A stretch of DNA of 64,000 nucleotides from Vicinamibacteria bacterium (GTDB taxonomy: Bacteria > Acidobacteriota > Vicinamibacteria > Vicinamibacterales > JAENWD01): the NCBI GenBank assembly GCA_963787035.1, contig CAWBBN010000009.1, positions 28,830 to 92,829 of the forward strand, written 5' to 3'. A program made the translations under genes and the position numbers. This document shows positions 4,181 through 62,732 of the stretch, piece by piece (within the stretch, counting starts at the first letter, position 1; every line of letters begins with the position of its first letter). Under the pieces are notes generated by a model that saw only the letters and a program-made list of their open reading frames with translations, searched no databases and was not told where the DNA came from.

Positions 4181-5176
4181 GCTCTCCGTCTCGATCGTCG
4201 TGCCCGTGGCCAACGGCGGCACGACGTTCGCCGACTGCCTGGCCGCGCTGTCCCGCCTCGCCCCTCCGCCGCAAGAGCTCATCGTCGTCGACGACGGCTC
4301 GACGGATGGATCGGCAGAGCGCGCGAGCGCGGCTGGCGCGCATGTGATCCGCATGGCGCGGCGTGCCGGACCCGCGGCGGCACGCAATCGCGGGGCGGCG
4401 GCCGCAGCGGGCGACGCGATCCTGTTCGTGGACGCCGACGTCCTCGTCGCAGCCAGACACCGTCGCGCGCGTGCGGGACGTCATGACCGACGGCTCGCTG
4501 ACCGCGGTGATCGGTTCGTACGACAGCCGGCCGACGGCGCCCGGGCTCGTCTCGCAATACAAGAACCTGGTCCATCGCTTCGTGCATCAGACGTCTGGCC
4601 CGGACGCGTTCACGTTCTGGGGCGCCTGCGGCGCCATCCGTCGCGAGGCGTTCCTCTCCGTCGGCGGCTTCGACGAGCGCTACGTCGATCCGAGCATCGA
4701 GGACATCGAGCTTGGCTACCGCCTGTGCCGCGCGGGATATCGCATCCGTCTGGAGCGCACGTCTCGAGGTGACTCACGCCAAGCGGTGGACGCTGATGTC
4801 GTGGCTGCGCACCGACATCGTCGCGCGGGCCGTGCCGTGGACCGACCTGCTGCTTCGCGAGGGACGCCTGCACGACGGGCTGAACCTGCGAATGGCGACA
4901 CGGGTGTGTGTCGTGCTGGCGTGGACGGTGCTCGTGGCTGCCATCGCCAGCGTCGCCGTCGACGGCGCCTGGGCCGTGGCAGTTGTCGGCGCGATCCTGC
5001 TGACGCTCGCCGACCTGCGGCTCTGGCGATACTTCATCCGACTTCGTGGCGTGTGGTTCACGCTGCGCGCGGCGCCGCTGCACTGGCTCTACTACCTGTA
5101 TTCAGGCGCGGCGTTTGCGTTTGCGGCGATGCGGCACGTGGCGTCCGGCCGGGCGCGTCGCGTGGAACCCGCCTGA
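4173..5176 (+). CDS. Glycosyltransferase family 2 with C-terminal TM segments; frame changes near 4450 and 4770
   Basis: SIVVPVAN, IVVDDGSTDGS, GPAAARNRG, FVDAD, GGFDERY..IEDIELGYRL across three ORF pieces. Confidence 0.85.
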
Positions 5177-6596: not shown

Positions 6597-6601
6597 CGGC
6601 G

Positions 6602-42710: not shown

Positions 42711-42900
42711 ACCACAGATTACACAGATCACACAGATTTCCTTCTTCCAGACCTCTCGATCCTTCTGACGTTCACCGCGACCCGGGCCGCGATCTCACGC
42801 CGCAGACCTCTGCGTGATCGTTCGCCACTGCTCTGTGCTCTTCGTGTCTCTGTGGCTCCCCGAAAAGAAGAATCTCTGTGCTCTCTGTGCCTCTGTGGCG
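42711..42900. repeat. CACAGA / TCTGTG ~9-10 bp period repeats in inverted arrangement
   Basis: ACCACAGATTTACACAGATCACACAGATT at left; CTCTGTGCTCTTCGTGTCTCTGTGG and TCTCTGTGCTCTCTGTGCCTCTGTGG at right. Confidence 0.75.
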
Positions 42901-42947: not shown

Positions 42948-42976
42948 TTGACAGCGTCAGCCCTGCGATGTAAAAC
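42948..42976 (+). promoter_or_regulatory. Sigma70-type promoter upstream of the GH51 gene
   Basis: TTGACA-17 bp-TAAAAC, then GGAG RBS before ATG 43010. Confidence 0.55.
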
Positions 42977-43009
42977 GCGTTCCGTCTTAACCCCAAACGG
43001 AGTGACGCC

Positions 43010-44654
43010 ATGGGCTCGACACTGAACCGCCGACGGTTTCTGACGGAGCTCGGACGATCCGGCGCCTTCGTGGCGGCGGGATCCTGGTTGAGCGCGATCG
43101 GCTACACGCAGACGACGAAAGCCGCCGCCCGCGCCGTCATCAACCGTGGACGCTATCGATCGGAGCTCGATCGCCGGGTGCTTGGCGCCTTCCTCGAGCA
43201 CCTGGGACGCGCGATCTACACGGGCGTGTACGAGCCCGATTCGTCGCTGGCCGACAAGAACGGCTTCAGGACGGACGTGATCGGCGAGATCAAGGGCCTG
43301 GGAGTGCCGATCACGCGGTACCCCGGCGGGAACTTCGTCTCCGGCTACAACTGGCTCGACGGCGTCGGCCCGAAGGACAAGCGGCCGACGGTGCTCGAGC
43401 GCGCCTGGAACTCGATCGAGCCGAACCAGTTCGGCACCAACGAGTTCATCGACTGGTGCAAGCTGGTCGGCACCGAGCCGCTGCTCGGCATGAACTTCGG
43501 CACCGGCAGCGCCGAGATGGCCATGGCGTACGTCGAGTACTGCAACGTCGACAAGGGCACGAAATGGAGCGAGCTGCGGCGGTCGCACGGCTACGACGCG
43601 CCGCACAACGTTCGCGTCTGGTGCCTCGGCAACGAGATGGACGGGCCGTGGCAGATCGGCCACATGTCCGCCCGCGAATACGGGCAGAAGGCGCGCGACG
43701 TCGGCCGCGAGATGCGCGAGCATCGATCCCGGGCTCAAGCTGATCGCGTGCGGGTCGAGCAATCGCGCGATGCCGACCTACCTGGTGTGGGACCGTGAAG
43801 TGCTGGAGGAGTGCTACGACCAGGTCGACGCGATCTCGCTGCATTGCTACTACGGCAACACGCCGGAGCTGAGCGGGAACAGCACGGCGAGGTTCCTCGC
43901 GATGAACCTCGACATGGAGCTGCAGATTCACGAGATCGCGGCCGTCTGCGACTACGTGCAGGGGCTGCGGAAATCGCCCAAGCGCCTCTGGCTCTCGTTC
44001 GACGAGTGGAACGTCTGGTATCGCCAGCGCGCAGGCGACGCCACCAACGGCCATCGAACCTTCGCTCCGAAGCTGCTCGAGGAGGTGTACAACCTCGAGG
44101 ACGCGCTGCTCGTCGGCGGGTTCGTGAACTCGCTGCTCAGGCAGTCCGATCGCGTGCGGCTCGCCTGCCTGGCGCAGATCCTCAACGTCATCGCGCCGCT
44201 GGTGACGAACAAGACGTCGGTGCTGCGCCAGAGCATCTACTACCCGTACGCGTGGGCGCTGCAGTATGCGAAGGGGCGCGTCCTCGATCTGGCGGTGGAA
44301 TGCGACACCTATCCCATCACCGGCGCGGGGCTCCGGCCGGACATGGCCCGCGACGACAAGGTGCCCTTCGTGGACGTCGCGGCGACCTTCGACCCGCAGA
44401 CCGGCCAGACCGCGGTGCTGATGCTGAACCGCGACCTGGACTCGGAGCGAGAGCTGATCCTCGAGTGGCAGGATCCGGTGCCGAAGAAAGTGCTCGCCTG
44501 CGAGACGCTGACAGGACCGGACCTCAAGGCGTTCAACACGTTCGAGGACCCGAAGCGCGTGATCCCGAAGCCGCTGGATGCGCCGGCGGCAAGCGCGCGC
44601 ATGACGTTCAAGCTGCCGCCTCGCTCGTACACGGTGGCGCACATCGCGTCGTAG
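43010..44654 (+). CDS. abfA: GH51 alpha-L-arabinofuranosidase, Tat-exported; frame change near 43720
   Basis: NRRRFL Tat motif, FLEHLGRAIYTG, RYPGGNFVSGYNW, LGNEMDGPWQ, SFDEWNVWY. Confidence 0.93.
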
Positions 44655-44706
44655 CTAGCGCCTCTCGGGGATCCGGGCGCGCTCGCGGCCGCCGCGCCCT
44701 TTTTCG

Positions 44707-45864
44707 TCAATGCGCGCCGGATGCGCGCGGCGACGCACGCCGCGCGCTCGTCCGGTCCTCAGGGGCGTCGCCGGGAGCCGCTTCGAGGTCGAGCGGCAGC
44801 CGCTCGAGAAACAATTCGAGGTTGCTGCGCATCACCACGTGCGGCACCACGCGCAGGCGCGAAGGCGGGCGAACGCCGTTGACGAGAAACTGGTAGAGGG
44901 CCTGCAGCGCCATGCGGCCCTGGCTCACTGGCCGCTGATACACCGTCGCGGCGACCTTGCCGGCGCGGATCCACTCGACCAGCTCCGGAAAGAGGTCCGT
45001 GGTGACGACGGTGAGCCCTTTGAGGCGCCCCGCCTCCTCTGCCGCGCGCAGCACCGGCAGCGAGTTCACGGTGCTGACATAGAGACCGCGCAGTTGCGGA
45101 TGCGCGCGCAGCACGCTCAGCATCCGCCGGTGTCCCTCGCGCTCGTCGTCGTGCGCCTCGACGATGGGGCCGAGGCGAATGCGCGCGCCGGTCGCCGCAA
45201 GGCTCGATTCGAAGCCACGCAGCTTGTCGGCGTGCTCCTGCATCTCCAGCCAGCCGGTGAAGAACGCCACCTCGCCTTCGCCGGGAAGGAATCGCGCGAG
45301 GAGCTCGCCTCCGACGGCGCCGACGGTGAACGGGTCGGCCGAGACCGACGTCAGGCGGAGATCTTCGAGCGCGTCGGTCACCACGCAAACGACCGGAATC
45401 TTCCGCTTCTCGGCCTTGCGGAGATACGGCGCGAGCGCAGCCGGGTTGCCCGGCGCGATGATCAGCCCGTCGGTGCCATCGCGCAGCGCGTCGTCGAAGA
45501 GCGAGATGTCGCCTTCGCCGAGACGAGGGTAGACGCGGAAGTCGACGTGCAGGGCGGGGCCGAACGGCGCGGCTGCCTCGCGGATGCCGTCGCGGAGGAA
45601 GTCCCAGAAGAGCGCGATGCGCTTGGGCAGCTGCACCGAGATGCGCACCTGCTTTTGCGACTGGAGATATCGGGCCGCGAGATTGGGACGATACCCGAGC
45701 GACTGGGCCGTGCTCAGCACGAGCGCGCGCGTGGTGGGACTGACGTCGGGCTTGCCGTGCAGCGCGCGATCCACCGTGCCGGTCGAGATGCCGAGCGCGC
45801 GCGCGATGTCCTTGATGCCGACCGGCTTTGGCGTTGGAGCGTGGTGCCTCGAGTCAGCCGGCAT
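44707..45864 (-). CDS. LacI family transcriptional regulator
   Basis: IKDIARALGISTGTVDRALH..LGYRPNLAAR plus periplasmic-binding-protein-like domain. Confidence 0.95.
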   Translation of the reverse strand: MPADSRHHAPTPKPVGIKDIARALGISTGTVDRALHGKPDVSPTTRALVLSTAQSLGYRPNLAARYLQSQKQVRISVQLPKRIALFWDFLRDGIREAAAPFGPALHVDFRVYPRLGEGDISLFDDALRDGTDGLIIAPGNPAALAPYLRKAEKRKIPVVCVVTDALEDLRLTSVSADPFTVGAVGGELLARFLPGEGEVAFFTGWLEMQEHADKLRGFESSLAATGARIRLGPIVEAHDDEREGHRRMLSVLRAHPQLRGLYVSTVNSLPVLRAAEEAGRLKGLTVVTTDLFPELVEWIRAGKVAATVYQRPVSQGRMALQALYQFLVNGVRPPSRLRVVPHVVMRSNLELFLERLPLDLEAAPGDAPEDRTSARRASPRASGAH

Positions 45865-46092
45865 GCGACGCCATCTTAGACGAAGTTCGACCATAGCAGA
45901 GCCGGCGACAGATCGCCGGCGGCGCCCGAGTCTCGGCGCGGGCGACCACCGCCCGGGCCGTCGCGCGGCGACCTCGAGCGACAGGATGAGCTGCCTGCAT
46001 TTCGTCCGTGTGACGAACCTGTCGGCGGCGGTGACGAACGTTGTGGAGAGGTAACCTCAACAGGCTAGCCGCTACATCCAGAAAGATTATTC

Positions 46093-46122
46093 TTGACAGC
46101 CCGAACAGATTGGCGCTAGTTT
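46093..46122 (+). promoter_or_regulatory. Sigma70-type promoter of the TBDR operon
   Basis: TTGACA-18 bp-TAGTTT. Confidence 0.6.
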
Positions 46123-46127
46123 GCCCA

Positions 46128-46143
46128 CCGTGAACGTTCACGG
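46128..46143. promoter_or_regulatory. LacI-type operator CCGTGAACGTTCACGG
   Basis: Perfect 16-bp palindrome with central CG, directly after the -10 box, divergent from a LacI gene. Confidence 0.8.
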
Positions 46144-46267
46144 CGCGTCCCCCCGCCGGGAGGGAACCCTCTAGCTCTACCCTCCGAACGCTCTCCGTGT
46201 CATCGCACGCTCGTGCCTGATCGCTCCGTGTTGGGTCGCACCGGCCGACCCTCGTCGGGAGGTTGAG

Positions 46268-49200
46268 ATGGCGAGGTCCCACCAGGTTCTGCTTCGGGTC
46301 GCAACAACCTAGTTGTCATTGTGTGTGCTCGGCGCGCCCGCGCTGGCCCAGCGCTCCGACCGCGCCACGATCAGCGGCGTGGTCACCGACGCGCAGGGCT
46401 CCGCCGTGCCCGGCGCGACCGTCACCATCCACAACGACGACACGAACGTGAACACCGTCGTCGTCACCAACACGTCGGGGGCGTACACCTCTCCGCCGTT
46501 GGTGCTCGGGCGGTACTCCGTGACGGTGGATCTCACCGGGTTCAAGAAGGGCGTGACGACGGGCATCGTGCTCGGAGGCGGCGACGCCATGCGTCACGAC
46601 GTGACGCTCGAGGTCGGTCAGCTCACCGAAGCGGTCGAAGTGAAGGCCACGACGGGCGGCCTGGACGACACGAAGCCGGACGTCAGCCATACGGTCGACG
46701 AGAAGTACTACAAAGACCTGCCGATGGTGACGGCCGCCGACGTGCGCCTGGCGGAATCGGCGCTGCTGATGCAGCCGGGCTACCTGCCGATGAAGCCGAA
46801 CGGCGACCCGATGTTCCGCGGCAGCCAGTTCAACTCACGCATCAACGGCGGCCAGACCATGGCCAGCGAAAACTTCTTCGATGGCGCCGCGTTCGGCTAC
46901 GCCCTGGGCCACCAGCAGAGCCACGAGAGCACGATGCCGGTCGAGTCGGTCAAGGAGATGAAGATCATCACCACGACCTACGACGCCCAATACGGCCACA
47001 CCAGCGGCGGCTTCATCGAGTACACCGCCAAGTCGGGCACCAACGCGATGCACGGCAGCGGCTACGGCTACTTCGCGGACGACTCGATGAACGCCAAGGG
47101 CTTCTTCGCCGTGGGCAAGACGCCGCTCAGCAACAACAACTACGGGTTCACCCTGGGCGGTCCGGTCGCGATTCCGAAGCTGTACGACGGCCACGACAAG
47201 ACGTTCTTCTTCGTGAACGTCGACTACACCAGGCTTCGCAGCGGCGTGCTCCCCGGCTTCGGCAACACGACGCCCACCGACGCCTTCAAGAACGGCGACT
47301 TCAGCGCCCTGCTCGGCGGCCAGATTGGCGTGGACGTCCTCGGCCGCCCGATCCTCGCGGGCCAGATCTTCAACCCGGCCACGACGCGCACGGTCAACGG
47401 CGTGCTGGTGCGCGATCCCTATCCGGGCAACATCATCCCCGGCAACGATCCGCTGAGAAGCGCGGTCGCGGCCAAGGTCGCGGCGTTGATGGTGCACCCC
47501 GATCGGCCCGGCACGGCGTTCAACGTCGCCGGCAACCCCGCGGGAGACCAGACGTGGAACCTCGATGCGCGCAACATCATGTTCCGCATCGACCACGGGT
47601 TCAACCCGAACTTCCGAATGAGCTTCAGCTTCTACTGGAACCACCGGCCGTCGATTCGAAACTGCGGCGAAGTCGCCGGGTGCACGACTCAGTTCGACGG
47701 AGAAACCACGCCAGAGAAGAACACCAGCTATTACGGCAACGGGTTCTACCAGCGCATCTCCACCCATCATGCGCATCAGCAGTTCGACTGGATCGTCAAG
47801 CCCACGCTGCTGAACCACACGACCGTCGCCTTCGACCGGTGGTTCATGGGCGGCAACTCCCTTTCCGCCGGAGCGGGCTGGCCGACGTTGCTGTTTGGGG
47901 CGAACCAGGGCGGGATCCTCCAGAACGACGCCGGCCCACCCGAGCTCGATTTCGCGGGCAACATCCCGTACAACAGCCTCGGCCAGTACCGGCTGGCCTC
48001 GATTCGGCTCCCTGGTGGCGAACCGCTGGCAGTTCTCCGACGACCTCACGTGGGTCAAGGGCCGTCACACGTTGAAGACCGGCTTCGAGTACCGCCATCA
48101 TCAGTTCCCGTTCACCGGCTGGGCGGTCGGCGCCGTCGGCGGCCAGTTCGCGTTCAACCGCCTGAACACCGGCGGCTACGACGCCAGCGGCAACAACCGC
48201 AGTGAGACGGGCGATCCGTTCGCGTCGTTCCTGCTCGGCCAGACGTTCTCGTCGAGCCAGACGATCCCCGTGGAGCCGACATTCAACGAGGCGTACACGG
48301 CGGGCTGGGTGAACGACGAGTTCAAGGTCAGCGACAAGCTGACGCTGACGATGGGCCTCCGCCTCGACTACCAGAAGGCGCGCACGGAGAGCAACAACCA
48401 GTACTCGACGTTCGACCCCAGCACGCCGAACCCCGGCGCGGGCGGGATCCCCGGAGCGCTCATCTTCGCCGGCGACGGGCAGGGCCGGTCGGGGCGCACG
48501 ACGTTCGAGAATCCGAATGTCGATTCGTGGGGCCCGCGCGTCGGCTTCGCGTATCGGGCCAACGACAAGAACGTCGTCCGCGGCGGCTACGGCATCTACT
48601 ACGCCGGCGTCGCGTTCGATCAGTTCATCGGCCAGCCGACACTCGGCTTCCAGGCGAACCTGCTCGCGCCGAACCTCACGAACGGTCGCGACCCGGCGTT
48701 CTATCTCGACAACGGCTTCCCGGCGAATCGCGTCGTCAAGCCGCCGTTCATCGACCCGTCGTTCGCCAACGGCGGAAACGTCGTCGCGGTGGCGCCCGAC
48801 GGCATCACGCTGCCGCGGTTCCAGAACTGGTCCGTCACGTGGCAGCATCAGCTCAACGAGAACATGATGCTGGACGTCTCCTACATCGGGAACCGCGGGA
48901 GCCGGCTGGATCATCACTTCCAGTCGCTCGGCGTCGACGCCAACATGAACGACCCGAGCGTGCTCGGGCTCGGCGCCAACGTGCTGAATGCCGACATCAA
49001 TTCAGCAGTGGCCCAGGCTGCGGGGATCAAGTCGCCGTATCCGGGGTTCGTCGGCAACGTCGCGCAGGCGCTGCGGAAGTACCCGCAGTACCAGCAGATC
49101 CAGTGGCGCGGTGTGCCCACCGGCGAGAGCCAGTATCACGCGCTCGAACTGGTCCTCGAGCGGCGCTTCTCGCGCGGCCTTCAGTTCCGCGTCGGGTACA

Positions 49201-49863
49201 CGTACTCCCGCCTGCGGAACAACGGCGCCGAGAGCGCGCAGGGCGACAACGGCATCAACGCGCGCGTGCAGAATCCGGGCAATCCGCTCGAGTGGTCGCT
49301 GAGCGCCGACGACACGCCGCACGTGTTCCTGACGGGCTTCACGTGGGAGATTCCCGGACTCGCAGAAATTCACGTCGGGCGCAGCCAAGGCGATTCTCGG
49401 AGGCTGGAACCTTGCCGGCGTCCTGAGATACGAAAGCGGCCGGCCGATGAACATCACGATGGCCAACGATCTCGGCGGCTTCCTGTTCAACGATCAGAAG
49501 CGCCCGAATCGCGCGTCCGGCGATGCCGTCGCGTCGATCAGCGGCAACTTCGATCCGAACGCCGACAACTACTTCAACAAGAACGCGTGGACCGATCCCG
49601 GGCCGCTGCAGTTCGGCAACGCGCCACGCAACGATGGCACGGTCCGATCGTTCCCGGTCTACAGCGAGGACCTGAACCTCTTCAAGGTCTTCACGATCAA
49701 GGATCAGAAGCGCATTCGATTCGAGGCGATGTTCGGGAACATCTTCAACCGGACGCTGTTCTGCGATCCGAACACGAACTGGAGCGCCGGCAGCTTCGGC
49801 ACGGTCAACACGCAGTGCAACCAGCCGCGGTCGATTCAGCTCGCGATCAGGTACGACTTCTAG
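46268..49863 (+). CDS. TonB-dependent receptor (Oar-like, N-terminal carboxypeptidase-regulatory-like domain); frame changes near 46305, 47990 and 49360
   Basis: TISGVVTDAQGSAVPGATVT, SVKEMKI.T..YDAQYG, KSGTN.HGS, WGPRVGFAY, C-terminal PRSIQLAIRYDF. Confidence 0.93.
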
Positions 49864-49894
49864 ACGGGCTGGGCCGAATCGGCACCCGGGGGGA

Positions 49895-49930
49895 TACAGC
49901 CCTGGCCTGAAAGGAGATATAAGGGCTGTA
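49895..49930 (+). promoter_or_regulatory. Intercistronic stem-loop TACAGCCCT / AGGGCTGTA
   Basis: 9-bp perfect inverted repeat between the TBDR stop and TPR start; loop contains AAAGGAG. Confidence 0.45.
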
Positions 49931-49938
49931 GGTGGCGG

Positions 49939-51494
49939 ATGCGGAGATACGGTCGAGTCGCCGGGCGCACTGCTTCTTTGCTGCGTCCTGGCGACCACGG
50001 CAACTTTCGGCGCCGATGCGCGCGACGCACTTCAGAAGGCGGCCTTGCTCGTTCAGCAGGGCCGCCTGGACGAAGCGGATCAGCAGGCCCGCCTCGCGCT
50101 TGCTGACCCCGACACTCGAGCGGCCGCGTACTCGGTGCTGGGCACCATTCGGTTCCAGCAGCAGCGCCTCCCCGAGAGCGTCGGCTTCCTGCAGAAGGCC
50201 ATCGACCTGGGGCCGCGACTTCTCGGCGCCCGCCTGACTCTCGCGCAGGTCTACACACTCCAGGGCCGGCAGGACAAAGCGCTGCCACTGCTTCGGCAAG
50301 CCATCGCCATCGATCCCTCCAATGCGGCTCCACGGCTTGCGCTCGCACGTGCCGAGACGGAAAGAGGCCACTACTCCGCCTCCCTGGAGCTGGCGGCGCC
50401 TGTGCTCCCGGCGTTCCAGCAATCGCCCGACGGCCTCGTCGTGCTCGCGACGAACTACCTGAAGACCAACCACAAGAAATCGGCGGCGGCGCTGGCGGCC
50501 AGGTGGAATGACCTGCCGAACGCTCCGCAGGACTGGTCAGTGAAGTTTGCGATCGTCTTGCTGGAGGGTGGCGTCGTCTCCGAGGCGATCGGCGTCCTCG
50601 AGCGAGCAAAACAGGCGGGACCGCCGTCGTTCGAGCTGGACTTCAACCTCGCCGGCGCGTATCTGCTGAACGGCGATGCTGCCCGCGCGCTCGAGACGTA
50701 CGACGAAGCGCTGGCCGTCAAGCCGGATTCGGTCGCGGCGCTGCAACAGGCCGCCGTCACCGCCGAGCGCACGGGCCAGCTCGAACGGTCGCTGTCGTAC
50801 TGGATTCGCGCGAAGAAACTCGCGCCCGACACGCCTGAAGTCCTTCTCGGCTTCGGGCGGGTCTGCCTGAAGATGGATCTCCTGGACGATGCGGAGCCGG
50901 CTCTGGCCAGAGCGGCGACTCCTGAAGCCGAACGAGCTGACGTATCAGTACACGCTGGCCGTCGCGAAAGTGGGCAAGCGGGAATTCGAAGCCGCCCAGC
51001 AGTTGCTCGAACCGCTTGCCGCGGCACGGCCGGACGATTCCGGCCTGCAGTACGGCCTTGGAGCCGTCCTCTACGTGCAGGGACATCTTGCGGAGGCATC
51101 CGCCCGCCTGAAGGACAGCGTTCGCCTGCAGCCAGACCAGCTCGCGGCGCCTTACTATCTCGCGCTCGCCGAGCGCGATCAGGGGCACGACGCCGACGCC
51201 ATCGACATCCTGCGTGCGCTGCTGCAGCGCCATCCCGATCACGCCGCGTCTTACGAAGCGCTTGGCGGACTGCTGATGACCGCCCAGAAGTACGAGGAGG
51301 CCGAGGTCAACCTGCAGAAGGCCGTGCAGTTGAACCCGAAGTCGGTGAAGGCCAACTACCAGCTCGGCCTGTTGCTCGCTCGCCTCGGCCGCAAGGAAGA
51401 GGCCGACAAGCAGCTCGCCCTTGCCAAGACGCTTCGCCAGGACGACGAGGCCACCTCGCGGCTGCAGTTGCGGCTGATGGAGCCGACGCCATGA
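49939..51494 (+). CDS. Exported tetratricopeptide repeat protein 1; frame changes near 49965 and 50920
   Basis: Signal peptide, then repeated A..LG..A...KA..L.P units in ORFs 50045 and 50889. Confidence 0.87.
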
Positions 51495-54400
51495 GAACGC
51501 CAGGCGTGGTGCTCATCGCCTGCGCGCTGGCGCTGCCGGCGTCCGCGTCCCAGGCGCCCGCGCGGCAGCCCGCGCCGGCGCGCAAGGCTGCCCCGTCACC
51601 GCCCGCGTCGGTCGGCGACCTTGAAGCGGCCGTCAAGCGCGACCCCGGCAACGCGAAGCTGCTGGTCGCGCTCGGCCTCGCCTACTGGGATCGGAACGAG
51701 GAAGACAAGGCGCTGGAGACGTTTCGGACGGCGGTCAAGGTGGCGCCGCGTTCGGCGGAAGCGCACAACTGGCTCGGCGTCGCGCTGTCCGGGAAGGCGG
51801 ATCTGCCCGGCGCGATCGCCGAGTTGAAGAAGGCGGTCGAGCTCGACCCGAAGTACGGCCGCGCGTACACCAACCTGGGCGCCGCGCTGGCGCAAGAGCG
51901 GCGACTTCACGGCCGCGGTCGGCGCATTTCAGAAGGCGCTGGCCCTCGAGCCGAACAACCTGGCGGCCCACACGAACCTCGGGCTCGCGCTGCGCGAGAA
52001 GGGCGATCTCGACGCCGCCCTGGTCCACCTTCGTCGTGTCGCCGATCGCGATCCCGAGAACGCCGCCATCCAGTACGAGCTCGGCCTGACGCTCCGGCAG
52101 AAAGGCGACCTTGCCGAAGCCGTGACGACGCTGGAGCGGGCGCTCGAGCTCGACCCCGAGATGCGCGAGGGCTACTACGCGCTGGGCATGGCGTTGAAGC
52201 AGCAGGCCGCGGCCACGCGGAAAGCGGCGCCCCCGTCGAGCAGTCCGGCGGACGCGCACGTCGCGCGTGGGCAGGAGGCGTTGACGCGCGGAGACTTCGA
52301 TGGCGCGCGCGACGAGCTCGCCGCGGCCGTGTCGGCCGACGACACGAACGCCGAGGCGCACAACCTTCTCGGATACGTGCTCGGGCAGCGCCGCGAGCTG
52401 GCCGTGGCGATCGACCAGCTTCAGCGGGCGATCGCGCTCCGGCCTGAGTACCCCGACGCGCACTACAACCTGGGAGTCGCGTTGTGGTACAGCGGCAGGA
52501 AGGACGACGCGATCCGCGAGCTGCGCGTCAGCCTGCAGCAGGATCCGTCGCTCGGCGCGAGCTGCGCGTTTCTCGGATCGGCGCTCAAAGACCAGGGCGA
52601 CCTTCCCGGCGCCCGGCGCAGCCTGCAGCACGCGATCGCGCTGTTGCCTCCGACGCCAGCCATTTACGTCGACCTCGGCATCGTGTTCTTGCGCGGCAAC
52701 GATCTCGCTCGCGGAGCCGGGCAGCTCGAAGCCGCGCTCAACATGACGGGCGACGGCCCTGCCGGCGCCGGACTGGGACGCCGCCGTCGCCAGCCTGCGG
52801 CCGCTGCTCGCCGCCAACCCGAACTCCGCCGAGGGCCACAACGTGCTCGGCCTCCTCCTCGGCCGCAGGGGAGCGAGCGCTGAGGACGTCGCGGCGCAGT
52901 TCCGCGAAGCGATCCGTCTGCGCCCGGACTACGCGGCGGCGCACAACAACCTTGGTCTGGTGCTGCTGCAATCGGGTGACGACGCGGCAGGCAATCGCGG
53001 AGCTGCGCGAGGCCGTCCGCTTGAGGCCGGACTACGCCGACGCGCACGACAATCTCGGCGCGGCGCTCACGCCGACGGACGTCAACGAAGCGATTCGAGA
53101 GCTGGAGCTCGCGCTGAAGCTGGCGCCGAACTCGGTCAAGGCGATGTACAACCTCGCGATCGCCTACGGCGCCAGCCCCGACCGTGGGCCGGCCGCGGAG
53201 ATCGAGCAACTGCGGAAGGTGATCTCGCTCGAGCCGTCGTTCGCCCGGGCCCATCTCGCGCTCGGCAAGGCGCTGCTGCAGGACGGCAAGGTTCCCGAGG
53301 CCATCGACGCGCTTCAACAGGCCGCGCGGCTCGATCCGGAGAACGGCGAGGCTCACTACCAGCTTGGCCTCGCGCTGGCGCGCAGCGGACGAAAGGACGA
53401 GGCGTCAGCCGAGCTCCAGAAGGGACGTGAGCTCGTGGCTGCCAGCGACCGCGCACAGAACGCGGGCCTGGACCTCGCCGAGGGACGCGTTGCGCTGCAG
53501 AAAGGCGATCTGGAGCAGGCCGTCTCGAAGTTTCGCCGCGCCCTTCAGGCGCAGCCCGACTCCGTGGAAGCGAAGCAGCTGCTCGACGAAGCGCTCGCGA
53601 AGCAGCGGAAGCCAGACACCGGGTCCGCCGCTGACGACGCCACTCGTGAGGCGGACATCGAGAATTACATTCGCCAGGAGCGATACGTGGAGGTCGAACC
53701 GCTGCTCGCCGAGTACGTCACCGCGCATCCCGCGTCATCGTGGGGCTGGTACGCGCTCGGCTACAGCCAGTTCGCGCAGAAGAAGATCGGCGAATCCATC
53801 AAGTCACTCGCGAAGTCGTTGCAGCTCGACATCAAGAACGCCGAGGCGCACAAGATTCTCGGCCGCAGCCTGATGACGATCGGCCGCTTCGACGCCGCGC
53901 AGCTCGAGTTCGAACAGGGCATCCGCTACAAGCCCGACTCGGCCGAGATTCACTACAATCTCGGCAAGCTGCTCTCCATCCAGGACAACTGGGAGCCGGC
54001 GCGCAAGCACTTCGAGGCGGCGCTCGCGATCGACCCGTCCTACCTCGAGGCGCTGGACGCGCTGGGCCTCACGCAGGAGGCGCTCGGAGACGATGCCGGC
54101 GCGGTGGCGAGCTACGAGAAAGCCATCGCGCTGAACCAGCAGCGGAGTGGCCACTTCGCATCGGCGCACGTGAACCTGAGCGCCTACTACAATCGCACCG
54201 GCGACGCGGTGAAGGCGCTCGAGTACGCGAAGAAGGCCGTGGAGCTCGACCCGCAATCCGACCGCGCGTATTTCCAGCAGGGACGCGCCGAGGAGCGGCA
54301 GGGCCAACTGGACGCCGCCGTCGCGGCGCTGAACCAGGCCATCGTCCTCAACCCGCGTGCGTCGTCCTATTACTATGTGCTCTCCGGCGTCTACCGGCGG

Positions 54401-54530
54401 CTCGGCATGATGGACGAAAGCAAGAAGGCCCTCGACATGTTCACGCGCCTCGACAAGGAGACCACCGCGATGGACCAGATGCGGCGGCGCGGGGCCGAGG
54501 CCGCCGCGCCTCGCGGCGACGCCGAGATAG
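51491..54530 (+). CDS. Large exported tetratricopeptide repeat protein 2 (~1000 aa); several frame changes
   Basis: MRTPGVVLIACALALPASASQA signal; many AH.NLG.AL TPR units across ORFs 50045, 52122 and 52484. Confidence 0.85.
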
Positions 54531-54534
54531 CCGC

Positions 54535-56342
54535 GTGCGCCTCGGAGATCTGCGCAGGCCTTCGCGCCGGGACGTGCTGCGGTTGCTGGGCGGGGCGAGC
54601 GCGACGTCGCTCATGCCGTTCGGCCAATCGACGGGCCGGCGTGGGCCGGCGGCCGCGCGCGAGCCGGCGTCGTCTTCACCGACGTCACCGACGCCTGCTG
54701 GACTCCAGAAGGCCGTCAATATCTCGGGCAGCCGGACCGACAAGCAGTTCCTGCTCGAGGAAATGGGCGGCGGCGCGGCGTTCTTCGACTACGACAACGA
54801 CGGCTGGCTCGACATCTTCCTCGTGAACGGCACGAGCCTCGACCCGGTGGTCCGCGATCGGAAGCCGACAAGCTATCTGTTCAAGAACAACCGAGACGGC
54901 ACGTTCACCGACGTGACCGCGAAGGCCGGCCTGACGCGTTCGGGCTGGGGCCAGGGGTGCTGCGTCGGCGACTACGACAACGACGGGTTCGACGATCTGT
55001 TCGTCTCGTACTTCGGCCACAACGTGCTGTACCACAACAACGGCGACGGCACGTTCACGGACGTCTCGGCGCAGGCGGGCGTCTCGGGATCCGGCACGGC
55101 GTGGGGCGCGGGCTGCGCGTTTCTCGACTACGACCGCGACGGCCATCTCGATCTCTTCGTCGCGAACTACGTGAACTTCGACCCGGAGAAGGCGCCGCAT
55201 CCGGGCGACTCGGCGTATTGCCGCTACAACGAGATTCCGGTGCCCTGCGGCGTCGCTCGGCTTCGCGGGCGGCACGAACCTCCTCTACCGCAATCGCGGC
55301 GACGGGACCTTCGCGGACGTCTCGGCCGAGTCCGGCATCGCCAGACCGCGGGGGCCATCGTCGATGGTGTTCGTCCCGACGCGGGTGGCAGGCGATCGGA
55401 TCGTACGGAATGGGCGCCGCCGTCGCGGACTTCGACAACGACGGCTGGCCCGACATCTACGTCGCCTGCGACAGCGCTCCCAGCCTGCTCTATCGCAACA
55501 ACCACGACGGGACGTTCCGCGAAGTCGCCGTCCCTGCGGGCTGCGCGCTCGACGAGAGCGGGGTCGCGCTGGCCGGCATGGGCGTCGGCGTGGCCGACTA
55601 CGACGGCGACGGCGCGCTCGACATCGTGCGGACGAATTTCTCGGAGCAGGTGACGACGCTCTACCGGAACATCGGATCGGGCTTCGGCGACGCGAGCATC
55701 AGCGCGGGCCTCGGCGTGAACCGCAAGTACGTCGGCTTCGGCGTCGGGTTCCTCGACGTCGACAACGACGGGTGGAAGGACATCTTCGTCGCCAACGGCC
55801 ACGTGTACTCGCAGCTCGAGGGACGGCAGCTTCACGTCACGTATCGACAGCCCAGGCTCGTGTATCGCAATCTCGGAACCGGGCGCTTCGAGGACGTCTC
55901 GGCGAAGATGGGTCCGGCCCTCCGCGCCGAGAACGTCGGCCGCGGCTGCGCCTTCGGCGACTTCGACAACGACGGCGACGTGGACGTCCTCGTCAACAAC
56001 CTGGATGGCCCGCCGACACTGCTGCGCAACGACGGCGGCAACAGGAGCAACTGGATTCTGATCAAGTGCGTGGGGACGAAATCGAATCGATCGGCGATCG
56101 GCGCGCGCGTCCGCGTGACGAGCGGCGGCCGGACGCAGATCGACGAAGTCCGGAGCGGATCGAGCTACTACTCGCAGCACGATCTCCGGCTGCATTTCGG
56201 TCTCGGCCGCGCGGAGAAGGTGGACGCAGTGGACATCACGTGGCCCTCGGGCGAGAAGGAAGCCCTTCGCGACCTGCCGGCCAATCGCCTCATCGTCGTC
56301 CAGGAGACCAAGGGTGTCGTCGAGACCCGTGCATTCCGGTAG
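54535..56342 (+). CDS. CRTAC1 / ASPIC-UnbV family FG-GAP beta-propeller protein 1, Tat signal; frame changes
   Basis: SRRDVL, EEMGGGAAFFDYDNDGWLDIF, repeated DxDxDG, SNRSAIGARV, SYYSQHDLRLHFGLG. Confidence 0.9.
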
Positions 56343-58097
56343 CGGGCGCACCGTCCTCACGCGCCGTGCGCTCCTCGGTTTGATGGCGTACCCGGCGGGG
56401 GTCGCGTTCGGCCAGGGGATCTCGTCGCGCGGCGTCAGGCCACAGCCGCGCGGCAAGCCGTCGGGCCGGCCATTCCTGGCACGGTTCACCGACGTCGCGC
56501 CGCAGGCGGGACTCACCCATCCGGTTGTCTACGGCGGCGTCGACGCCAAGAGCTACATCGTCGAGGTCGTCGGGTGCGGCGTCGCGTTTCTCGACTACGA
56601 CAACGACGGCTGGCTCGACGTCTTCCTGCTGAGCGGGACGAGGCTGGATGGCGCACCGGCGGGCACGACGAACCGGCTCTACAAGAACAACCGCAACGGC
56701 ACGTTCACCGACGTCACCGAGAAGGCCGGCCTCACGTTCGCTGGTTGGGGCTCGGCGGTCACCGTCGGCGACTACGACAACGACGGCTTCGACGATCTCT
56801 TCATCACGTGCTACGGGCACAACCTGCTGTATCACAACAACGGCGACGGCACGTTCACCGACGTGACCGAGAAGGCGGGCCTGCGCGATGCCACGGCGCG
56901 CTACGGCTCGGGCTGCACGTGGGTCGACTACGACCGCGACGGCCGGCTGGACCTCTTCGTCGCGACGTACCTCGACACGACCATCGAGAAGCTGCCGAAG
57001 CCCGGAGAGAACCCTGATTGCCGCTGGAAGGGCGTGCCCGTGAACTGTGGTCCACGAGGGCTGCCGACGGGTCACGTGCAGCTGTTCCACAACAACGGAG
57101 ACGGCACGTTCACGGACGTCAGCCGCCAGTCCGGCGTGGCCGCCGCCTCTGGCGCCTATCCGATGACGGCCGTCGCGGCCGACTACGACAACGACGGCTG
57201 GCCCGACATCTACGTCGCGTGCGACTCCACGCCGAGCTGGCTGTTTCGCAACCAGCGCGACGGCACGTTCCGCGAGGAAGGCCTCGAGCGCGGCGTGGCG
57301 CTGAGCGAGGACGGCCTTGAACAGGCGGGCATGGGGATTGGCGTCGGCGACTACGATCTCGACGGCAACCTCGACATCTTCAAGACGCATTTCTCCGACG
57401 ACACCAACGTCCTGTACCGGAACGACGGCAAGGGCTACTTCAACGACTCGACGATCCGCGCGGGCATCGGCGTCGAGACGCGCTACGTTGGCTGGGGCGC
57501 GGGCGTCGTCGATCTGGACAACGACGGCCTCCCGGATCTGTTCGTGGCGACCGGCGGCGTCTACCCGGAGGTCGAGCGGCAGGTGCCGGCCTATCCGTTC
57601 CGCACGCCGCGCCTCGTCTTCCGGAACCTGGGCGACGGGAGGTTCGAGGAGTTGATCGAGGAGGCCGGGCCCGGCATCGCCGCGACGCACGCCAGCCGCG
57701 GCTGCGCGTTCGGCGACTTCGACAACGACGGCGACGTCGATGTGCTCGTGGTCAACCTGAACGAGCCGCCGTCGCTCCTCAGGAACGACGTCACGAGCGG
57801 CGGCCATTGGCTGAAGGTGCTGCTGGTCGGCGTCACGTCGAACCGGAGCGCGATCGGCGCGCGCGTGACGGCCCGGTACGGCGATCGCCTCCAGGCGCAG
57901 GAGGTCACGGCGCAATCGAGCTTCTACTCGGCCAACGACCGGCGCCTGCATTTCGGCCTCGGTCCGGTCGACGGGCGCGGATCTTGACGATCCGATGGCC
58001 CAACGGCGCGACGGAACAAGTCGCCAACGTCGCAGCCAATCAACTCGTCGTCATTCGCGAAGGCGCAGGCGTGATCCGCAAGGAGACATTCGCATGA
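56329..58097 (+). CDS. CRTAC1 / ASPIC-UnbV family protein 2, Tat signal; frame change near 57975
   Basis: TRRALL, GVAFLDYDNDGWLD, SNRSAIGARV, SFYSANDRRLHFGLG. Confidence 0.92.
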
Positions 58098-60105
58098 GGC
58101 CAGGGGCATTCGGCGTCTCGCTCGGGCTGGTGCTGGCGCTGCTCGCGTCCCCCCGTGCCGCCGAGCGCCAGGCGCAACCGACGGCGACCGTTCGCATCGA
58201 CATCGACGCCGGCCAGGTCGAAGGCCGGATCAGCCCGCTGCTCTACGGCCAGTTCATGGAGTTCATGTTCGAGGGCGTCAAGGGCGGGCTGCACGCGGAG
58301 CTGCTGCGCAACCGCAGCTTCGAGGAGGACGCGAACGTCATCGGGCTCTCACGCCGCTGGGAACGCTATCCGGACGACCGAGACGACGACTACGGCTTGA
58401 CGTTCGCAACGGGTTGACGACGTCGTCGTATCCGGCGCGCCCGGACGCGGACGGGACCGTCGGCGGGCACTCGCTGAAGGTGCAGATTCGTCCAGCCGTC
58501 ATCGAGCGTCACGGCGTGTATCAGGCGCCAATCCCTGTCAGGCAAGGCATTGAGTACCGCGGCTATTTGTGGATGAAGACGGAGGGCTTCAAGGGCGACG
58601 TACGCGTCGCGCTCGAGTCCGCGACGAGCGGCGGCCGGATCTACGCCGAGGCAGCGCTCGCGAACGTGTCGGGCGACTGGAAGCAATATCCGTTCGCGCT
58701 CAGCGCCGACGGCGACCGATCCGCAGGCGCGCTTCGCGATTCTGTTTTCCGGCGAAGGCACGGTCTGGGTCGACCAGGCCTCGCTGATGCCGGGCGACGC
58801 CGTGGACGGCGTCCGCGGCGACGTCCTCTCGAAGGTCAAGGCGCTGTCGCCGCGATTCCTCCGCTGGCCTGGCGGGAACGTCGCGCAGGACTACCACTGG
58901 CGCTGGGGCGTCGGGCCGCGCGATGAGCGGCCGCTCTGGGTCAACCTCTCGTGGAAGAACGAGCTCGAACCGGGCGACTTCGGCACCGACGAGTTCATCC
59001 GATTCGCCAGAAACGTCGGCGCCGAGCCGACGCTGACGGTCAACGTCGAGGGACGCGGCGCCACGGTGGAGGAAGCCGCGGCGTGGGTCGAGTACTGCAA
59101 CGGCCCGGCGACCTCGACCTACGGCGCGATGCGCGCGCGCAACGGGCATCCGGAGCCTTACCACGTCAAGTACTGGGAGATCGGCAACGAGATCTGGGGC
59201 GACTGGGTCCGCGCGCACTCGGACGCCGCGACCTACGCGCGCAACCTGACGCGCTACGCTGCCGCCATGCGGGCGGTCGATCCCTCCATCACGCTGATCG
59301 CGGTGGGCGACAACGACATGGCCTGGAATCGCACCGTGCTTGGATCGGGCGAGCGCTTCGACTACCTCGCGATCCATCACTACTACGGTCAGCGCGACAT
59401 GGCCGGCGATCCGCGCAACCTGATGGCCCGCCCGCTCCACTACGATCGGTTCTACGGCGAGGTGGACGCGATGCTGCGCGAGCAGCCGGCCGACCGTCGG
59501 CCACAGCTCGCGATCAACGAATGGGGGCTGGATCTCCCCGAGTCGCAGCAGTATTCGATGCTCGGCGCGCTCTACGCCGCGCGGCTGATGAACGTCTTCG
59601 AACGCCGCGGCGATCTCGTCGGGATGAGTGCCGTCTCCGACCTCGTCAACGGCTGGCCCGGCGGGATCATCCAGGCGGCTCGCGACGCCGTGTTCGTCAC
59701 GCCCGCGTACCTGGTGAACCGCCTGTACGCCACGCGCGTCGGCGCGGAACGCATCGCCACGCGAGTGGCCGGACCGACGTTCTCCAGTACCCGCGAGGGC
59801 GACGGCGTGCCCGCGGTTGACGTCGTCACGACACGTTCGGCCGACGGACGGCACCTGTTCATCAAGGCCGTCAACACCGACCTCGAACACCCGGTCTCGG
59901 CCCTCATCAGCGTGCAGCGGCGCACGGGTCGCCTCGAAGGGAACGCTCGAGCGCGTGCACGCGGACTCCCTGACCGCGGTCAACAGCTTCCGAACTCCGG
60001 ACGCCGTCGAGCATCACCACGCAGCCCCTGGCCGGCTCGAGTGCGCTGACGCTCGTCCTCCCGAGCCACTCGGTGTCGGTCATCACGCTCGACCTCCTGC
60101 ACTGA
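58094..60105 (+). CDS. GH51-like glycoside hydrolase with inserted CBM-like domain; several frame changes
   Basis: ISPLLYGQFMEF, LRWPGGN, FGTDEF, WEIGNE (acid/base), INEWG (nucleophile). Confidence 0.85.
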
Positions 60106-60118
60106 GGCCGCGATTCCG

Positions 60119-61788
60119 ATGTCACGCCTGCTCGCGGCGCTCATCTCCATCGGGCTTCTCGCTCGAGCGGACGCGCCGCGGGTCGAATTCGCCGACGTCA
60201 CGAAGGCCGTCGGCGTCGCCTTCACGCACGCGAACTCCGCGACGTCCAGCAAATATCTGGTCGAGACGATGGGCGGCGGCGTGGCGCTCGTCGACTACGA
60301 CAACGACGGACGGCTGGACATCTTCTTCACGAACGGCGCCCGCATCGACGACCCGATGCCCGAGGGCAAGCGGCCGGACAAGACGGACCAGAAGTTCTGG
60401 AACCGCCTCTATCACCAGTCCAGCGACGGCACGTTCGTCGACGTCACCGAGCGGGCCGGGCTCTCCGGCATGCCGCAGAACCTCTACGGCATGGGCGTCG
60501 CCGTCGGCGACTACGACAACGACGGCTTCGAGGATCTCTACGTCACGAGCTACGGCGGCAACACGCTGTATCACAACAACGGCAACGGGACCTTCACGGA
60601 CGTGACGACGCGTGCGGGCGTGGGCGCCGGGGGATGGAGCGCGAGCGCCGGCTTCTTCGACTACGACAACGACGGCAAGCTCGATCTGTTCGTGACGCGG
60701 TACGTGGACTGGTCGTTCCAGAACAATCGCTACTGCGGCGAGAAGGCGCCGGGCCTGCGCGCGTACTGCCATCCCGACAACTACAACGGCGTCGCGAACC
60801 TCCTGTTCCACAACAACGGCGACGGCACGTTCACCGACGTCTCGGCGAAGGCAGGCATCGCCGATCCGCAGGGCAAGGGGCTCGGTGTGTCATTTGCCGA
60901 CTACGACCGCGATGGCTGGATGGACGTCTACGTGGCGAACGACTCCGTCCAGTCGTTCCTGTACCGCAACAACGGCAACGGCACGTTCTCCGAGACGGGG
61001 CTCCTGGCCGGCGTCGGCTTCAACGAGGACGGCAAGACGTTCGCCGGGATGGGCGTCGACTTCGCCGACTACGACAACGACGGGCGTCCCGATCTGGTCG
61101 TCACCGACCTCTCAAACGAGCGATACCGCCTCTTCCGACACAACGGCGACGGCACGTTCAGGGACGTCACGCACAGCTCGGGCGTCGGCGCGGCCACCCT
61201 GCCCTTCTCGGGCTGGAGCACGGGGTTCCTCGACTACGACAACGACGGCTGGAAGGACATCTTCGTCGCGCAGGGGCACGTCATGGACACGATCGAGAAG
61301 ACGTCGCCCAACCTGCGGTACGAGCAGCCGCCCCTGCTGCTCCGGAACGACGCCGGCCGCTTCACCCGGGTCGTCGCCGGCGAGGCCTTCGAGCATCCGT
61401 GGGCGGGCCGCGGCGCCGCCTTCGGCGATCTCGACAACGACGGCGACGTCGACATCGTCGTCAGCAACGTCGGTCAACCGGCGATGGTGCTCAGGAACGA
61501 TGGCGGCAACAGGAACAACTGGCTCGCGATCACGACTGTCGGGACGCGCTCGAACCGGGACGGCCTTGGATGCCAGGTCAAGGTCGTCTCAGGGACCGGC
61601 CTGACCCAGTACTTCAGCGTCGGGACGGCAGTCGGCTATCTCTCGGCGAGCGACAAGCGACTTCTGGTGGGCCTTGGCAGCGAGACCACCGCCGCGCTGG
61701 TCGAGATTCGATGGCCGTCGGGGATTGTCCAGACGTTCGAGAAAGTCCCGGCGCGTCAGACGCTGGTCGCGACGAGCCGGCGAAGTAG
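60119..61788 (+). CDS. CRTAC1 / ASPIC-UnbV family protein 3, Sec signal; frame change at the extreme C-terminus
   Basis: ETMGGGVALVDYDNDGRLD, SNRDGLG, GYLSASDKRLLVGLG, IRWPSG. Confidence 0.92.
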
Positions 61789-61794
61789 CCGCCG

Positions 61795-62732
61795 CTACCG
61801 AATCGACCTTGTCGAGCGCCTAGGCGCGCGGCAGCACTGCTCGGCTTCCTTCTTGGTGCGTCCCTTCCGAGCTTGCGAGCACTTCGCCCTGCACGCGCAC
61901 GGTGACGTGAAAGCGCTTGTCGTGATCGGGCCCCTGCTCCGAGGTGACCTCGTAGTCGGGCAGCGGACGCCCTGATGCCTGGAGCCGCTCCTGCAGCGCC
62001 GACTTGAAGTCGCGCAGGAAGTCGGGCGACCGCACGTGCTCGATCTCTTCGGCGAGCTCCTGCAGGATGAAATCGCGGGCCGCATCGATGCCGCCATCGA
62101 GGTAGATCGCGGCGATCACCGCTTCGCAGCCGTCGGCCAGCAGCGCCTGCTTCTGTCGTCCGCCCGTCTTCTCTTCCCCGCGTCCGAGGAGCAGGTAGGC
62201 GCCGAGCCCGATCTTCTGCGCCAGCTCCGCGAGCGCCGTCGTCGAGACGAGCGCCGCTTTCGCCTTGGACTTCTGCCCTTCGTCGAAGTGCGGGAACTCG
62301 CGATACAGCAGATCCGCGACGACGAAGCCGAGCACGGCGTCGCCGAGGAACTCCAGCGACTCGTTGTCGACGACGCCGCCGGTGGCGTCTTCGTGCGCCT
62401 TGGACTTGTGCGTCAGCGCGTGCTCGAGCAGCCCGACATCCCGGAAGCGATAGCCCAGCCGCCGCTCGAGGGCGCGCACGGATCGCTCGAGCGGCACGAC
62501 GACGCCGCCGGGCATGTGGTCCTGGTGCTCCGCGATGATGCGCAGCGCAGTCGTCCGCCTGATCCGGCGGCACGGCGACGCTCACTGCGACCAGCCCCTC
62601 GACGTTGAACGGAAACACGGACGGCCCCGGCCCGGTCGACGGAATCGAGCGGATGCCGTGCGTCTCGAGCAGGCCCCGCACCACCGAGGCCTCAATCTCC
62701 GAGTGCGTCCGAAAGACGATAGGCCAGTCCAT
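61795..62732 (-). CDS. rnc: Ribonuclease III with an apparent N-terminal DUF2007-like domain; frame changes near 62548 and 61870
   Basis: ALTHKS, NESLEFLGDAVL, DEGQKS, LADGCEAVIAAIYLDGG, DFKSALQE, GPDHDKRF, GRTKKEAEQ. Confidence 0.92.

Follow-up and report, generated by a model that had tools for sequence, protein, structure and literature searches.

A LacI-associated operon with predicted arabinofuranosidase genes in a Vicinamibacteria bacterium, combining an Oar-class barrel with TPR and CRTAC1-type propeller proteins

The carbohydrate utilization loci containing TonB-dependent receptors (CUT loci) of Xanthomonas and Caulobacter comprise, in the available text of PMC1790865, a TonB-dependent receptor, carbohydrate-degrading enzymes, a sugar-type repressor and an inner-membrane transporter. 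A PF13620 N-terminal extension defines the Oar subclass of TonB-dependent transporters, and the Oar protein of Myxococcus xanthus has been reported to export the protease PopC (both from the available text of PMC6434023). Here, we describe a locus of a soil-dwelling Vicinamibacteria bacterium in which a LacI-family regulator gene and two genes for family 51 glycoside hydrolases (GH51) stand with genes for an Oar-class barrel, two tetratricopeptide repeat proteins (TPR1 and TPR2) and three CRTAC1-type propeller proteins (CRT1, CRT2 and CRT3). It lies in a 64,000-nt stretch of about 69% G+C, referred to below as the window (G000:C9:28830–92829), of a 5.07-Mb genome that is 88% complete by estimate.

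Like the CUT loci, the locus has a receptor beside enzymes and a repressor, a palindromic operator upstream of the receptor gene, and no SusD. It differs from them in that its barrel belongs to the Oar class, bearing a CarboxypepD_reg extension, and that five of the nine genes encode TPR or CRTAC1 proteins, which fall outside the CUT description in the available text of PMC1790865. The receptor, two GH51 enzymes and LacI with a conserved operator are all present, but the locus lacks a gene for an inner-membrane transporter, which makes it, measured against that text, a partial CUT locus. The best reading is that the regulator, barrel and GH51 genes form a partial CUT-type locus, to which the TPR–CRTAC1 proteins are an undescribed accessory; a literature search, with subscription journals and supplements outside its reach, found no description of a TPR–CRTAC1–barrel module. 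Polysaccharide utilization loci of the Bacteroidota are likewise regulated operons with a TonB-dependent barrel bearing a CarboxypepD_reg-type N-terminus, glycosidases and non-catalytic accessory proteins, and in both cases the clades of the accessory proteins track the enzyme family. However, the present locus has no SusD_RagB protein and no match to the SusC family, and its accessory proteins have Sec or Tat signals and are not lipoproteins.

We consider it fairly probable that this is a LacI-repressed operon for the uptake and debranching of arabinofuranosyl-decorated plant glycan fragments, in which the Oar-class barrel replaces SusC/SusD. When no inducer is present, LacI would occupy a 16-bp palindrome that overlaps the transcription start, and a sugar, possibly arabinose or an arabino-oligosaccharide, would release it. 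The barrel would then import oligosaccharides, while two Sec-exported TPR scaffolds would bind three propellers of the CRTAC1 family, each with seven blades and calcium loops and exported by Tat or Sec, in an envelope complex that may capture glycan or pass it on beside the barrel. Exported GH51 exo-arabinofuranosidases would free arabinose, and an inner-membrane carrier encoded elsewhere would finish the uptake. In this scheme, we infer the substrate, the inducer, and the location and biochemical role of the TPR–propeller complex; the capture or hand-over role is suggested by the genomic context, the domain fusions, the complex model and the fold relatives described below.

The initial annotation had proposed a promoter with a LacI-type operator before the barrel gene, and the operator was borne out. 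The sequence CCGTGAACGTTCACGG is a perfect 16-bp palindrome located 5 nt after a promoter-like TTGACA (46093–46098)–N18–TAGTTT (46117–46122), and its 12-mer core has a single occurrence in the genome. Four congeners (G001, G004, G005 and G011) have the identical 16-mer ahead of the barrel gene, amid different flanking sequence; the promoter-like spacing is similar in G004, and TTGACA is found in G011. A consensus scan for sigma-70 scored no promoter here, so that the −35/−10 assignment is by eye, and the palindrome was not reported by a repeat scan. The LacI/GalR features seen are an N-terminal LacI helix-turn-helix (HTH) domain, a periplasmic-binding-protein-like sensor and a palindrome with a central CG; no NCBIfam equivalog matched the regulator at cut-off. 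Judged by its sequence, the palindrome is a predicted LacI-type operator that overlaps the expected transcription start and is placed to block initiation. Metatranscriptome contigs from two soil studies (X15 and X16) cover LacI, the barrel, TPR1, TPR2, CRT2 and CRT3. One soil metatranscriptome contig begins at 46141, inside the operator, after adapter-like letters and near the start expected from the TAGTTT box. These contigs are a hint of expression, since they cannot show start, level or a single transcript and the libraries may hold DNA.

Every gene of the locus except that for LacI is broken in the window. A DNA search over 20 relatives, 12 of the same genus, gave long synteny in 5 of these 12 (G001, G004, G005, G006 and G011). 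The operon is unbroken in G011, where it encodes a barrel of 1228 aa, TPR1 in a 557-aa open reading frame (ORF), TPR2 of 1036 aa, three CRTAC1 proteins and a GH51 of 670 aa; a divergent LacI gene lies upstream, with two GH51 genes past it. The near-abutting gene arrangement noted in the window is clearest in this intact operon, in which the genes from TPR1 to GH51 overlap by 4 or 8 nt or are separated by gaps of 8–26 nt. The boundaries of the two TPR genes, drawn at first from raw ORFs, were shifted by the same comparison to those in Table 1. The order is CRT1–CRT3–CRT2–GH51 in all five congeners, as opposed to CRT1–CRT2–GH51–CRT3 in the window; the position of CRT3 in the window is matched by a remnant in G003, next to the gene for RNase III. 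G003 (L005, on G003:C262) is the closest relative, at 93% nucleotide identity, and is without window positions 44842–61711 (16.9 kb). It retains GH51 no. 1 and, on either side of a jump from window position 44841 to 61712, the final ~135 nt of LacI and ~260 nt of CRT3; the operon has thus been cleanly deleted in a sister species. In G011, an rve-type integrase (insertion sequence element) is located just past the GH51 gene downstream of the operon (L020, 17556–18464).

The two GH51 genes hint at the substrate. The G011 orthologs of GH51 no. 1 and no. 2 match the solved GH51 arabinofuranosidase structures 1pz3 (E 1.5e-141) and 3ug3 (E 1.7e-74), respectively, and an Alpha-L-AF_C domain was found in GH51. 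Within the window, GH51 no. 2 retains EIGNEIWGDW and LAINEWGL, aligned with the motifs of 3ug3; we take the Glu residues of the two motifs to divide the acid/base and nucleophile roles between them. An extra N-terminal beta-sandwich region of ~230 aa in GH51 no. 2 aligns with the fungal long-form MgGH51. Read by eye, GH51 no. 1 has a twin-arginine-type signal, NRRRFL, and GH51 no. 2 a Sec-like signal; both are predicted to be exported exo-arabinofuranosidases. The initial annotation had included the GH51 gene beyond LacI in the locus. Its position there was confirmed, but the gene has no conserved operator and is retained in G003, where the operon is deleted, so it is linked to the operon by adjacency only. 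A candidate second operator before GH51 no. 1 (42813–42826, with 2–3 mismatches) was rejected, as there are 9 such sites in the window against 6.5 expected by chance; the site has no counterpart in G011, G004 or G003.

Is the association of CRTAC1 genes with TPR proteins, barrels and glycosidases a general one? An alignment search with the CRT proteins gave 618 relatives in species-representative genomes. The best 80 of the 618 were kept as loci, and their genes were classified with a simple gene caller of our own and phmmer. These loci are nearly all from Acidobacteriota, with two from Poribacteria. A TPR gene is found within three genes of the anchor CRTAC1 gene in 60 of the 80 loci, and directly adjacent in 46; an Oar-type barrel gene lies within three genes in 48, and 38 have both. 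A LacI homolog is encoded within four genes in 14 of the 80, and sugar-type regulators (LacI, ROK, AraC and SorC) occur in many loci. For the enzymes, 249 ORFs of at least 280 aa were scanned out of 341 unclassified ORFs within four genes of the anchor, with 105 scanned out of 147 ORFs more than four genes away as the control. Glycoside hydrolases account for 44 of the near ORFs (17.7%) and 4 of the far ORFs (3.8%), an odds ratio of 5.4 (Fisher p 2.7e-4) in a comparison where the loci of kin are non-independent and one scan batch was run at E ≤ 1e-10 and the others at 1e-12. Thus, TPR, Oar-type barrel and glycoside hydrolase genes are far commoner beside CRTAC1 genes than farther out, in agreement with the co-occurrence that had been proposed.

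The near enzymes belong to GH2, GH3, GH29, GH30, GH31, GH36, GH27, GH92, GH63-like, GH38, GH28, GH1, GH54, GH15 and glycoamylase, and such genes are near the anchor in 30 loci, or in 32 of the 80 once two GH51 loci are added. GH51 is also found within the operon in L022 and L025. In a FastTree phylogeny of 80 CRT sequences (78 of the 80 anchors, with L025 and L057 excluded as long, plus CRT2 and CRT3 of the window), CRT3 is in a well-supported clade of six members that includes loci with GH51 (L022) and with GH54 (L032), an arabinofuranosidase family distinct from GH51. Other clades accompany GH29, GH30/GH3, GH92, GH31 or GH2. Because the module accompanies many glycoside hydrolase families across loci, it is a general accessory and not an arabinose-specific device. 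The initial annotation had proposed a TPR–propeller glycan module for an arabinose-containing substrate. This proposal is partly supported, by the operon with GH51, the enrichment and the TPR2–CRT1 model described below.

The CRT proteins have FG-GAP_3 (E up to 1.3e-61) and UnbV_ASPIC (E 3.3e-23 to 2.6e-10) domains in Pfam, with seven Dx[DN]xDG loops each in CRT2 and CRT3; no NCBIfam family was found for any of the three. Export signals were read by eye in all products: the G011 ortholog of CRT1 has SRRDFLR (canonical Tat SRRDFL), CRT2 has the Tat-like TRRALL, and CRT3 and TPR2 have Sec-like signals. The genome contains two more barrel–TPR–CRTAC1 runs (C22:94598–103993 and C26:82267–88770). 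The CRTAC1/UnbV family is very large, with 8000 of 8000 scored candidates at E ≤ 1e-10.

Several observations suggest that the TPR and CRTAC1 proteins are physical partners. TPR and UnbV_ASPIC domains are combined in 11 of 120 longer homologs among the matches listed, and five fused TPR–CRTAC1 ORFs, with both domain orders, are seen in 4 of the 80 loci. Two loci, L024 and L025, have ORFs in which TPR2 and CRT1 are fused; these were set aside since the CRT signal peptide is kept and an indel may have joined overlapping genes, a suspicion raised because the contig and bin naming suggests long-read assemblies. Conservation in TPR2 is highest in the tail (about the last 300 aa), which is similar to the short TPR proteins that accompany CRTAC1 in other loci. 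A complex prediction for this tail (residues ~735–1036 of the G011 protein) with the G011 ortholog of CRT1 scored 0.76, and the best of three controls scored 0.00. Among solved complexes, 58 of 80 attained this mark, as did 2 of 110 mismatched pairs; these counts are rough, own alignments having been used. At least 90% of contacts are common to the runs, and the partner has a predicted local distance difference test (pLDDT) value of at least 86. The predicted interface involves residues 981–1008, 924–929 and 855–859 of TPR2 and residues 318–329 and 365–383 of CRT1. The proposed contact between TPR and CRTAC1 proteins is thus supported by the model, though not shown, for the TPR2 tail and CRT1. 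Long CRTAC1 homologs (P0225, P0130, P0177 and others) are fused to acetyl-xylan-esterase, malectin, PKD/Ig repeats, type IX secretion system (T9SS) tails or peptidases; the fusion partners are mostly surface-type or sugar-related.

The G011 barrel covers positions 2–838 of the 838 positions of PF25183, and the pieces of the window barrel match this model at E 9.6e-44 and 3.2e-92. The PF13620 (CarboxypepD_reg) extension at the N-terminus has E 1.7e-17 for the window barrel and 8.4e-17 for that of G011, and PF00593, the model of the 22-strand TonB-dependent barrel, gives 26.1 bits against a cut-off of 27. A stretch after the extension, TEAVEVKA, resembles a TonB box by eye. A NCBIfam scan of the intact barrel gave a weak TonB-hemin match and no SusC-family model at E ≤ 1e-5. 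SusD_RagB (PF07980) had no match in the 88%-complete genome, although the positive control matched in Bacteroides thetaiotaomicron. These results agree with the earlier description of the locus as a SusD-less, regulator-controlled outer-membrane uptake locus.

In which direction does the barrel transport? The architecture, with a PF13620 extension ahead of a large barrel, is that of M. xanthus Oar as given in the available text of PMC6434023. By analogy, the barrel might export the CRTAC1 propellers, and perhaps GH51, to the surface or medium, with the TPR proteins as periplasmic chaperones or adaptors. Consistent with such a role are the extension that defines the Oar subclass, the export signals without a lipobox in the CRT proteins, the predicted TPR–CRT contact, and the T9SS tails and surface-type domains of distant longer CRTAC1 homologs. 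However, Oar is reported to export a protease, and it is the single Oar-type exporter documented in that text, whereas the barrel described here stands among glycosidase genes under a sugar-type regulator and has a Plug domain below the Pfam cut-off. LacI control and the enrichment of exo-acting glycosidases fit sugar import, and we regard secretion by this barrel as unlikely.

In sequence, the CRT proteins match murine CRTAC1 (9etn) at E 2.6e-22. An AlphaFold model of CRT2 (pLDDT 84.9, predicted TM (pTM) score 0.88) also has 9etn as its top Foldseek match (E 1.4e-24, TM 0.70, 548 columns). Both have FG-GAP blades with Dx[DN]xDG loops followed by a UnbV_ASPIC domain, at ~20% identity; here the proteins are bacterial, have Tat or Sec signals, are encoded in an operon with TPR partners and have no epidermal growth factor (EGF)-type domain in Pfam. 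Animal CRTAC1 has an EGF-type tail, and we know of no enzyme activity for it. The next folds are aldos-2-ulose dehydratase 4a7k (E 3e-9), the N-acetylglucosamine lectins PVL, PAL and AAL2, integrin alpha, and YesW (E 1.6e-7), of polysaccharide lyase family 11. With the lectins (2bwr, 5mb4 and 4tqj; Foldseek E ~1e-8 to 1e-9), the CRT proteins share the seven-bladed FG-GAP-type propeller with calcium loops. The lectins are known sugar binders, but TM is just 0.36–0.42 relative to the query and they are without UnbV_ASPIC; the comparison is at the level of the fold.

The matches to 4a7k and YesW raise the question of whether the propellers could be carbohydrate-active enzymes of an unclassified kind, be it lyases, dehydratases or hydrolases, that would act on the imported glycan while positioned by TPR. 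In L040, a neighbouring FG-GAP protein matches RGL11_C, the CRT clades follow the glycoside hydrolase family of their loci, and there are three CRT paralogs in the operon, all of which would fit catalysis. On the other hand, no catalytic motif was identified in the CRT proteins, whose invariant columns are mostly calcium-loop residues and structural Gly and Asp, and the scores of the enzymes are equalled by those of the lectins PVL and AAL2. Together with the lack of a known activity in animal CRTAC1, this makes an enzymatic role of the propellers improbable, to about the same degree as secretion.

Not all of the evidence favours uptake of arabinofuranosyl-decorated glycans, and the following points weigh against it. 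The complex model is a prediction and covers one pair only. The Plug domain scores 19.8 bits in the G011 barrel, below the threshold of 23.9, and had no match at E ≤ 1 in the window barrel piece; a sequence comparison of the barrel with solved structures gave no matches, and hence no solved transporter. No lipobox was seen in the CRT or TPR proteins, so a SusD-like surface position is not indicated, and what CRT2 shares with lectins and enzymes is no more than the propeller fold (TM 0.36–0.51). Between 42974 and 61975, there is no inner-membrane transporter gene, nor is there an arabinose catabolic gene within the locus, and AraA was not found in the 88%-complete genome. Since the operon has been lost in G003, it is dispensable. 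Finally, 48 of the 80 surveyed loci have no glycoside hydrolase gene within four genes, and in L034 and L036 a nucleoside hydrolase takes its place.

In L034 and L036, from two Acidobacteriota assemblies, the barrel and CRTAC1 genes are beside genes for an inosine-uridine nucleoside hydrolase and for queuosine salvage, a context that hints at cargo other than plant glycans. One could then imagine that the TPR–CRTAC1 proteins serve the envelope apart from glycan use, in barrel assembly, adhesion or matrix, and travel with the numerous Oar-type barrels. The 48 loci just mentioned, the two with nucleoside hydrolases, and the 13 UnbV_ASPIC copies of the genome would suit this idea. The excess of glycoside hydrolases near the CRTAC1 genes, the sugar regulators in many loci, and the presence of GH51 within the operons of the window, L022 and L025 argue against it, and we consider it quite improbable.

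The broken genes of the window require explanation. Tracking of the third-position G+C (GC3) phase and tblastn with intact orthologs revealed about 15 frame changes and an in-frame TAG (46310–46312) within 42974–61975. The rpoB gene of the same genome (C16:129580–133778) occupies three frames, breaks also occur in CRTAC1 paralogs on other contigs, and relative to the 93%-identical G003 the window has one extra base near 43721, in GH51 no. 1. Short-read contigs from two independent metagenome runs and two metatranscriptome runs omit a single base at 46328, 47989, 49351/49358, 49958, 50920, 52753, 57970, 57986, 58406 and 58426. Omissions make up 11 of the 12 indel rows among the matches listed (besides 36 further rows), and their places coincide with frame changes. 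A metagenome protein, P0001, is CRT3 at 98% identity and the normal length of 556 aa. The frame breaks are assembly errors, as indicated by the split rpoB and paralogs, the extra base relative to G003 and the bases omitted in short-read contigs. Dropping base 46328 alone gives no clean signal peptide for the barrel, so there must be more indels in that stretch.

It is hardly credible that the locus consists of pseudogenes in decay. Such a reading would suit the roughly 15 frame changes and the in-frame stop in 19 kb, the several housekeeping genes of the window that are unbroken and the deletion of the operon in G003, but it was rejected on the same evidence of assembly errors, together with the intact metagenomic CRT3 and a GC3 that is high across the pieces. 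Single-base insertions are frequent genome-wide in G000, and the 88% completeness estimate may be depressed by these. They bear on any gene call made on this assembly.

The gene set proposed initially (LacI, a TonB-dependent receptor, two TPR, three CRTAC1 and two GH51) is present as described. Pfam searches placed these gene types across 42974–61975 of the window: GH51 pieces at 42974–44654, intact LacI as in Table 1, the CarboxypepD_reg plus OMP_b-brl_4 barrel at 46313–49910, TPR repeats at 50045–54826, FG-GAP/UnbV_ASPIC at 53740–57987 and 60119–61975, and the second GH51 at 58787–60049. The locus end that had been drawn at 61788 fits the end of CRT3 homology; the assembled ORF continues to 61975, and its tail beyond ~61790 is probably an indel artefact. 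The flanking genes are unrelated, with hutH and hutU upstream and genes for RNase III and an amidohydrolase downstream. Elsewhere in the window (4348–10277), there is a polysaccharide biosynthesis cluster with GT2 genes, a Polysacc_synt flippase and a GFO/IDH/MocA oxidoreductase, also with apparent frame breaks.

Table 1. Features of the LacI–barrel–TPR–CRTAC1–GH51 locus, in window positions.
Feature	Position	Strand	Basis
GH51 no. 1 (predicted alpha-L-arabinofuranosidase)	43010..44654	+	Pfam; 78% identity to G011 GH51a over two frames
Terminator-like hairpin and T-run between convergent GH51 no. 1 and LacI	44684..44706	+	Consensus scan only
LacI-family regulator, sole unbroken gene of the locus	44707..45894	-	LacI HTH, E 2.5e-10; Peripla_BP_4, E 3.2e-44
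Promoter-like TTGACA-N18-TAGTTT	46093..46122	+	By eye
16-bp palindrome CCGTGAACGTTCACGG, predicted LacI-type operator, central CG	46128..46143	+	Read by eye; congener comparison
Oar-class TonB-dependent barrel, three frames, TAG at 46310	46268..49863	+	Pfam; intact G011 ortholog
TPR1, predicted exported, ~520 aa, start uncertain, one frame change near 50918	49900..51494	+	G011 comparison; boundaries approximate
TPR2, predicted exported, ~1000 aa, three frame changes	51533..54535	+	G011 comparison; boundaries approximate
CRT1, CRTAC1-type propeller (FG-GAP x7 and UnbV_ASPIC), two frame changes	54535..56342	+	
CRT2, CRTAC1-type propeller, Tat-like TRRALL signal, last ~36 aa in another frame	56329..58097	+	
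GH51 no. 2, long form, Sec-type signal, four frame changes	58094..60100	+	
CRT3, CRTAC1-type propeller, Sec-type signal	60119..61975	+	Homology ends near 61790

What might the TPR–CRTAC1 module mean for the Acidobacteriota? Few groups of soil bacteria are more abundant than these, and plant polymers are assumed to be what they feed on through their many Oar-type barrels. To our knowledge, the mode by which they capture substrate without SusD is not known, and no function has been assigned to bacterial CRTAC1/UnbV proteins. A more tentative and rather doubtful proposal, which goes beyond the uptake function suggested above, is that TPR–CRTAC1 could be the Acidobacteriota counterpart of SusD and the surface-glycan-binding proteins for Oar-type transporters. 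Different propeller subfamilies would each suit a particular glycan, in this locus arabinofuranosyl side chains, and the animal CRTAC1 fold might derive from bacterial sugar-binding propellers. The present locus is a compact and testable case for such ideas, with one repressor and a defined operator, one barrel, a modelled TPR–propeller contact and enzymes of known specificity, and the specificity of GH51 suggests which glycans to try.

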